A stretch of DNA of 23,016 nucleotides, taken from the IMG/VR virus record IMGVR_UViG_2563366874_000001, one strand, 5' to 3'. The notes beneath the pieces are model-generated. The model had not been told where the DNA came from. It saw only the letters and a list, made by a program, of their open reading frames with translations, and ran no database searches. The first letter of the stretch is position 1. Each line of letters begins with the position of its first letter. Source of the stretch: a virus. Taxonomy: Duplodnaviria; Heunggongvirae; Uroviricota; Caudoviricetes. The position numbers and the translations under genes were made by a program. Shown in pieces: positions 22,531 to 23,016 of the stretch.

Positions 22531-22551
22531 AGGAGGAGTAATGGATATAAC

Positions 22552-23016
22552 TGAACCGCCCCGGGTTTCCTGGAGAGTGTTTTATCTGTGAACTCAGGCT
22601 GCCAGATCATCGTTTCCGATGGAAGCATAATAAGCTTTTTCTGCTTCTGCCGGAGGAGTATGGCCCAGCCTTTCCAGCAATCGTCGATTGTTATACCAGT
22701 CCACCCACGTGAGTGTGGACAGTTCCACTTCTGCACGGTTTTTCCAGCTCTTACGGTGTATTACCTCCGCTTTGTAAAGACCATTGATGCTCTCCGCCAT
22801 CGCGTTGTCATACGAGTCGCCTGTACTTCCTGTTGATGCCAGTAATCCGGCTTCCTTAAGCCGCTGTGTGTAGGCCAGCGATACATACTGAGAACCTTTA
22901 TCACTGTGATGGACCGTGCCGGACGGTCGACGGGCCCATAACGCCTGCTCCAGTGCATCCAGCACGAATGTCGTTTCCATGGACGATGAGACCCGCCACC
23001 CCACGATGTATCCGGC
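22552..23016 (-). mobile_element. IS3-family insertion sequence, IS629/IS3411-like; terminal inverted repeat and 3' portion only (element continues beyond the window)
   Basis: The + strand from 22552 reads TGAACCGCCCCGGGTTTCCTGGAGAGTG, matching my recollection of the IS629 terminal inverted repeat. The adjacent minus-strand ORF encodes an IS3-family transposase catalytic region. Confidence 0.8.
22594..23016 (-). CDS. IS3-family transposase OrfB, C-terminal catalytic (DDE/RNase H-like) region, 5' end outside the window
   Basis: The minus-strand frame is open to the window edge ([29 protein letters not shown]...[11 protein letters not shown]...[15 protein letters not shown]...). The HSDxGSQY and DNAxxES motifs are typical of the IS3-family DDE core. 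Confidence 0.85.

Follow-up and report, generated by a model that had tools for sequence, protein, structure and literature searches.

The right end of the window (the whole stretch of 23,016 nt that was analysed) very probably carries a recent simple insertion of IS629 that split a conserved gene for a small, predicted membrane protein and left a predicted null allele; this account as a whole is given a probability of roughly 93%. The host prophage is a lambda-like E. coli prophage, and the gene lies directly behind its tail-fibre genes. The element is the known IS629 and the event a textbook simple insertion, of a kind that is common in prophages and already well described; it is an ordinary gene knock-out and not a virulence-cargo event. 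In itself the event is of little weight, since it inactivates a gene that looks non-essential. It provides, for a conserved family located beside receptor-binding genes, a natural null allele and an IS-free sibling that is 100% identical.

The stretch corresponds to KB732318.1:1-23016 of assembly GCA_000350785.1, a public draft genome from 2013, and was identical to it in the 13,875-nt overlap when the sequences were compared. An exact-protein look-up with the 798-aa tail fibre returned two records, namely the KB732318.1 scaffold, where this gene lies at coordinates identical to those in the window, and CP164482.1 (NZ_CP164482.1), the IS-free sibling genome. A scaffold gap of 890 N starts at 23017, within the IS, and the window therefore stops at 23016; its end is explained by the collapse of the assembly within IS629. 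The features of the locus are the following, in window coordinates or, beyond the gap, in window-equivalent coordinates and those of the source scaffold (L010).

21826-22530, plus strand: upstream neighbour, an intact 234-aa tail-fibre-domain protein with a C-terminal Peptidase_S74 domain (intramolecular chaperone), from the list of open reading frames; its TAA stop is at 22528-22530
22531-22536, plus strand: AGGAGG Shine-Dalgarno of the disrupted gene, read in the sequence, 4 nt 5' of the ATG
22541-22543, plus strand: ATG of the disrupted gene, read in the sequence
22541-22551, plus strand: ATGGATATAAC, read in the sequence, the first 11 nt (M-D-I and 2 nt of Thr4) of the 294-nt, 97-aa gene
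22541-22591, plus strand: residual stub ORF made by the insertion, which by translation runs into the IS and gives the 16-aa peptide MDITEPPRVSWRVFYL and a stop
22549-22551: left copy of the target-site duplication (TSD) AAC, with the right copy at window-equivalent 24332-24334
22552-22576: terminal inverted repeat IRR TGAACCGCCCCGGGTTTCCTGGAGA, pairing with IRL TGAACCGCCCCGGGAATCCTGGAGA at the far end
22552-23016, minus strand: the 465 nt of IS629 (IS3 family) nearest to IRR, lying antisense to the phage late operon and continuing past the window
22594-23016, minus strand: C-terminal part of the transposase orfB (DDE / rve integrase core), truncated by the window end and the scaffold gap
Window-equivalent 24332-24617 (L010 15191-15476), plus strand: rest of the disrupted gene to its stop, read in the source scaffold

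At the left junction, AGGAGG was read directly at 22531-22536, as the sequence-only reading had it, and the IS terminus TGAACCGCCCCGGG starts exactly at 22552, the boundary on which that reading had staked its account. Two of its details needed correction: the ATG, claimed at 22540, lies one position further on at 22541, and the ORF runs for 11 nt (22541-22551) instead of 12 before the element begins. The intact gene in the IS-free relatives is preceded by an identical Shine-Dalgarno sequence. The left junction GTAATGGATATAACTGAACCGCCCCGGG and the predicted right junction had no exact match in the viral, genome, and metagenome contig collections, of which the species-representative and metagenome sets do not include this draft genome. 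Likewise, megablast across the junction against complete E. coli genomes and phages found the exact insertion in none of them, and it did reveal two neighbouring insertions, in AST205 and FDAARGOS_1301 (see below).

The part of the element at 22552-23016 is 99.4% identical to copies annotated as 'IS3 family IS629' and 99.8% identical to its best matches; near-identical IS629 copies are labelled IS1203-family in RefSeq. Compared with an intact copy of 1310 bp, there was 1 mismatch in 465 nt on the window side and none in the 425 nt on the far side. The minus-strand ORF at 22594-23004 matched Pfam rve (E=4.5e-14) and rve_3 (E=4.4e-12), and the orfA half beyond the gap, at L010 14810-15136(-), matched HTH_Tnp_1 (E=7.4e-13). 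The inverted repeats, for which both ends were compared, are imperfect and of the TG…CA type. The sequenced part of this copy amounts to 890 of 1310 nt, the other 420 nt, with the frameshift region, being in the scaffold gap; the intact copy in FDAARGOS_1301 is annotated with a programmed -1 frameshift and a pseudoknot between orfA and orfB. The naming of the element as IS629, made from the letters of one end, is thus borne out by the nucleotide identity of 99.4-99.8%, the inverted repeats, the target duplication, and the domains of both orfA and orfB. Rump et al. (PMC3271280) report that 62% of IS629 copies lie in prophages and that the duplications are 3-4 bp long.

Behind the 890-N gap, which starts at 23017 (L010 13876-14765), the source scaffold continues at window-equivalent 23907-24331 with 425 nt from the IRL/orfA end. 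At the far junction the sequence is GGGGCGGTTCA/AAC/ACCTTTTCTTCATGCG…, followed by the remainder of the ORF (AAC/ACCTTTT…), so that both flanks together are …GGATATAAC/TGAACC…GGTTCA/AACACCTTTT. The target duplication is a 3-bp AAC on either side of the IS, and a single AAC is present at the empty site in the two intact copies of the gene (loci L011 and L001). Deleting the IS and one AAC in silico restored a 97-aa ORF in frame, and the reconstructed sequence was 100.000% identical over 7,500 nt to the IS-free CP164482.1. This zero divergence from the sibling implies that the insertion is very recent. The sequence-only reading had made its case depend on a far side that continues the MDIT… frame, and had proposed looking for a 3-bp target duplication and rebuilding the gene for comparison with IS-free relatives; the remainder of the gene does follow in frame after AAC, AAC stands at both IS ends, and the rebuilt 97-aa ORF lies in the sequence that matches CP164482.1 completely.

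The interrupted ORF, which had been put forward as a possible gene directly after the tail-fibre cluster, proved to be real. In the IS-free relatives inspected, a CDS is annotated from this exact ATG, coding for 97 aa in NCTC86 and for 95 in strain 042; intact copies lie at L001 4716-5009 and L011 13400-13693, and the intact protein has the sequence MDITPFLHALCAVAAQVMIGLFAGNWVYGAIAGCTFFIAREHTQAEYRWIEMFGHGKRINMPWWGGFDPRVWDVASLIDFAVPVVACLLVWLLVNRG. The reconstructed protein matched PHROG 1443, a family with unassigned function, with E=1.5e-57, the match covering positions 1-96 of 97. Of 5426 complete E. coli genomes, 740 matched 80% or more of the 726 nt that run up to and include the stub, a count which gives the frequency of the upstream flank and not that of the 97-aa gene because the 726 nt are nearly all upstream gene. 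Homologues formed 561 clusters, all of them unnamed and 'hypothetical', in Escherichia, Salmonella, Citrobacter, Enterobacter, Leclercia, Aeromonas, and Comamonas, and each of the 443 representative clusters at 50% identity is a stand-alone small protein. The gene is carried by many isolated, viable lambdoid phages.

The alignments showed a rigid core, AREHTQAEYRWI..FG.GKR.NMPWWGGFD.R.W, with 25 invariant columns at 57-95% overall identity. The AREHTQAEYRWI…NMPWWGGFD part of it is almost invariant from E. coli to Aeromonas and Comamonas, the reconstructed protein has it as REHTQAEYRWI…MPWWGGFD, and H8, G29, R40, E41, Q44, E46, W72, and P83 are kept down to about 30% identity. The disrupted gene is predicted to encode a three-helix membrane protein of about 97 aa: an AlphaFold2 model (pLDDT 95.2) has helices at residues 4-23, 26-53, and 74-96, and the hydropathy agrees with three membrane segments and a polar loop of 34 residues. 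Searches of Pfam, NCBIfam, PADLOC, PDB, and BFVD returned no relative of the family, and a paper on it was not found in the literature search. A class I holin, suggested by the size and the three hydrophobic helices, was considered and rejected, as the C-terminal tail, NRG, bears one charge only and is not highly charged, the gene adjoins tail fibres and not lysis genes, and the long invariant polar motif would be atypical of holins.

Many variants in the databases are frameshifted, truncated, or fused (P0026, P0030, P0082, P0021, P0035, and others), and in one of them the N-terminus of a tail-fibre-assembly (Tfa) protein is joined at residue 27. The chimeric homologues (P0026 and others) were examined as candidates for fusions read out of an IS and were rejected, being actually frameshifts or fusions with Tfa fragments. 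These sequences show that the locus often recombines and decays in prophage remnants, which is consistent with the gene being dispensable for survival of the lysogen.

An addition to the main account, to which we give somewhat less than even odds, is that the start region of the gene is a preferred target of IS629, i.e., a local hot spot, and that the insertion was not random. In AST205 (NZ_AP043614.1) the element lies between the Shine-Dalgarno and the ATG, the junctions reading AGGAGGA(GTA)/IS/(GTA)ATGG, and in FDAARGOS_1301 (NZ_CP070111.1) it lies at the ATG, with GGAGGAA(ATAA)/IS/(ATAA)TGG, the duplicated bases being given in brackets. The FDAARGOS_1301 prophage is a variant without the 234-aa gene and abuts sitABCD. 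The three insertions are located as follows.

Window 22531-22552: insertion with TSD AAC
L003 5130-5145 and 6440-6455: insertion with TSD GTA (AST205)
L006 2825-2845 and 4135-4155: insertion with TSD ATAA (FDAARGOS_1301)

All three fall within about 12 bp and have the same orientation, with the IRR/orfB end toward the tail-fibre genes. They are regarded as independent because their target duplications and prophage backgrounds differ and the IS copies of AST205 and FDAARGOS_1301 are only 98.3% identical. Three independent insertions so close together and in one orientation speak for a preferred target, and so does the result that none of the 5426 complete genomes had an insertion in the opposite orientation at this site. 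Moreover, a back-of-envelope estimate of the further insertions expected by chance in a 24-bp interval is well below 0.1, and two were observed. Against this, there are three cases only, all the comparisons were made with complete genomes, and selection could concentrate the survivors here, since little harm comes of an insertion that hits a dispensable gene or lies at an operon's end. In addition, IS629 is reported to have no sequence-specific target (Rump et al., PMC3271280); the literature search on IS629 targets found just this general statement of no sequence specificity. If the preference is real, IS629, reputed to have no target specificity, would have an orientation-specific hot spot in the start region.

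The reading of the disrupted ORF as virulence or 'moron' cargo of an EHEC-type prophage, hinted at in the sequence-only reading, is now very unlikely; such cargo would be, for instance, an effector or a lysogenic-conversion gene under a promoter of its own. The position of this gene, distal to the tail fibres, is one where cargo is often found in lambdoid prophages, and the apparent dispensability of the gene, with the frequent frameshifts and fusions in prophages, would also suit such a role. Nevertheless, the gap between the upstream stop and the ATG is 10 nt, and when the surroundings of the intact gene in L001 were scanned for the sigma-70 consensus, the plus strand had no promoter-like site, and there was no terminator-like site either, promoter and terminator being the pair by which a moron would be recognised. 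The short gap, the strong Shine-Dalgarno, and the lack of promoter- or terminator-like sites together lead to the conclusion that the gene is a distal cistron of the late operon and not a self-contained moron. As for homology to effectors, virulence factors, or defence systems, there was no match in Pfam, NCBIfam, or PADLOC. The EHEC framing fared no better: the closest prophage relatives inspected belong to NCTC86, the EAEC strain 042, and human, marsupial, and chicken isolates, none of which is obviously EHEC.

The distribution of the family also argues against such cargo, as its members are found in phages of many genera, among them those of environmental Aeromonas and Comamonas, and in phages of the P2-like, multi-tailspike, and lytic jumbo types. 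In most of the phage contexts examined the gene adjoins receptor-binding genes (tail fibre, tailspike, or tail tip). It directly follows the S74-chaperone tail-fibre protein in E. coli lambda-like prophages and, in a P2-like prophage of Leclercia, an S74 tail fibre of 939 aa; in Salmonella it has a tailspike gene on either side, and it comes after a gpJ-like protein of 2520 aa in Comamonas and, in a metagenome-assembled genome, after large tail-like proteins that include a DUF4376 protein. The 234-aa neighbour in the window, named 'tail fiber domain-containing protein' in the RefSeq records of relatives, matched Pfam PF13884 (E=4.6e-6) and positions 1147-1384 of 1385 of PHROG 3299.

Distant homologues of the core motif, with 36-46% identity over residues of about 22-97, were seen in Aeromonas jumbo phages of about 235 kb, beside a DarB-like gene, and in a podophage; two of them are located as follows.

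L013 3917-4180: homologue in the Aeromonas jumbo phage pAEv1810
L012 4956-5219: homologue in the P22-like Aeromonas podophage 4_4512, between a gene for a 698-aa hypothetical protein and a gp10-like gene

Since homologues occur in jumbo phages and in a P22-like podophage, the family is not restricted to temperate siphophages. The DarB-like neighbour in a jumbo phage is an exception to the tail contexts, and another is a member in Aeromonas rivipollensis CP149130.1 (L004 6001-6309, 58% identical), located in an apparently non-phage part of the chromosome with Pirin, RIO1 kinase, two lipid A acyltransferases, and DNA polymerase II as neighbours, which suggests that the family is not strictly phage-bound.

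The tail-fibre module of the window (19142-22530) is itself split into three ORFs of 798, 93, and 234 aa. In the first, a phage_tail_N domain occurs together with an extended series of repeats of the KTSETNAK/SAAxSA type, and its DNA contains internal repeats of 249 nt with about 83.5% identity. The second belongs to PHROG 1361, with unassigned function, and the third matches only the C-terminal 240 positions of the tail-fibre profile of 1385 positions, including the S74 chaperone domain.

There is only a slim chance that the event was no simple insertion but an IS-mediated deletion or inversion, or a misjoin of the scaffold, so that the 3' part of the gene would not truly be adjacent. Rearranged copies are common, matching duplications having been kept at only 21 of 47 IS629 sites in O157 genomes (PMC3271280), and the centre of the present copy is an N gap, estimated at 890 nt for 420 nt of missing IS. 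The estimate is thus about 470 nt too long, or there is extra DNA in the gap. Because the 420 nt lie in an over-long gap, the continuity of a single-copy IS rests on the scaffolder and on the perfect collinearity of the flanks; a single copy is nonetheless very likely. What tells against any rearrangement is that both IS ends are correctly oriented to each other and perfectly flanked by AAC, and that the flanks are the two halves of one gene which, with the IS removed, give 7.5 kb identical to the sibling. The notion that the Shine-Dalgarno and ATG are a chance motif, with no gene hit, is hardly conceivable, for although the 11-nt stub by itself is no proof of a gene, it is refuted by the conserved 97-aa CDS annotated at this ATG in the IS-free genomes inspected, the upstream flank with the stub matched in 740 complete genomes, the full-length match to PHROG 1443, and the in-frame remainder of the ORF past the IS.

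Under the account of a simple insertion, IS629 (1310 bp) would have transposed into the fourth codon of the last gene of the late (tail-fibre) operon by ordinary cut-or-copy-and-paste integration, with duplication of the 3-bp target AAC. The Shine-Dalgarno and ATG would now yield only the 16-aa peptide, and the 3' part of the gene would be stripped of its Shine-Dalgarno, its start codon, and the invariant D2. Read in silico, the frame leading out of the IS contains a stop codon, behind which none of ATG, GTG, or TTG occurs ahead of the gene. Within the gene, M18 is the first ATG, and the source annotation calls an ORF of 80 aa from it; such a product would miss the invariant D2, H8, and Q16 and most of helix 1. 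The allele is predicted from these sequence features to be null, with an 80-aa product from M18 or expression by read-through as a formal possibility.

The upstream tail-fibre genes are intact, and the gene is followed only by Tfa remnants and then by oppositely oriented genes. Because only gene remnants follow in the operon, the tail-fibre genes should be unaffected and no polar effect on virion genes is expected. The region at L010 15480-22397 holds the Tfa remnants, a SAM-dependent methyltransferase, an alpha/beta hydrolase, ompT, an AraC-type regulator, a DUF4434 protein, and nfrA. In K-12 the ompT-envY-nfrA neighbourhood is the site of the DLP12 prophage; the phage of the window would then be a more complete occupant of that site.

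As to the product, genomic context is the only functional clue, and for that reason the role offered here is a guess: an envelope-directed accessory in adsorption or entry, e.g., in exclusion or in protection against re-adsorption, and not a part of the virion or a virulence factor. We put it forward with low confidence. Similarly doubtful at present is the combined proposal that a conserved three-helix family has a new envelope-directed function in adsorption, entry, or exclusion and that the start region of about 12 bp of its gene is an orientation-specific hot spot for IS629.

Small envelope proteins encoded by phages beside their receptor-binding genes are known from Llp of T5, Cor of phi80 and N15, and gp15 of HK97. 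The PHROG 1443 protein may be likened to them in being small, in having a tail or receptor-binding gene as neighbour, and in its predicted location in the envelope. In contrast to these proteins, it has no sequence or fold similarity to anything named, and its family is far more conserved across genera and occurs also in lytic phages and in a chromosomal non-phage context.

In its sequenced part the element itself shows no difference from IS629 of the E. coli O157, O111, and O145 prophages, sharing with it the nucleotide identity of 99.4-99.8%, the TGAACCGCCCCGGG… ends, orfA and orfB, the 3-bp target duplication, and the location in a prophage; it is the host prophage that differs, its inspected relatives being not obviously EHEC. 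The closest parallels are the insertions of AST205 and FDAARGOS_1301, which have the same IS type, orientation, and neighbouring gene family as the window and an insertion point within about 12 bp. In those two the ORF is intact but separated from its Shine-Dalgarno (and from the operon), whereas in the window it is split after nucleotide 11.
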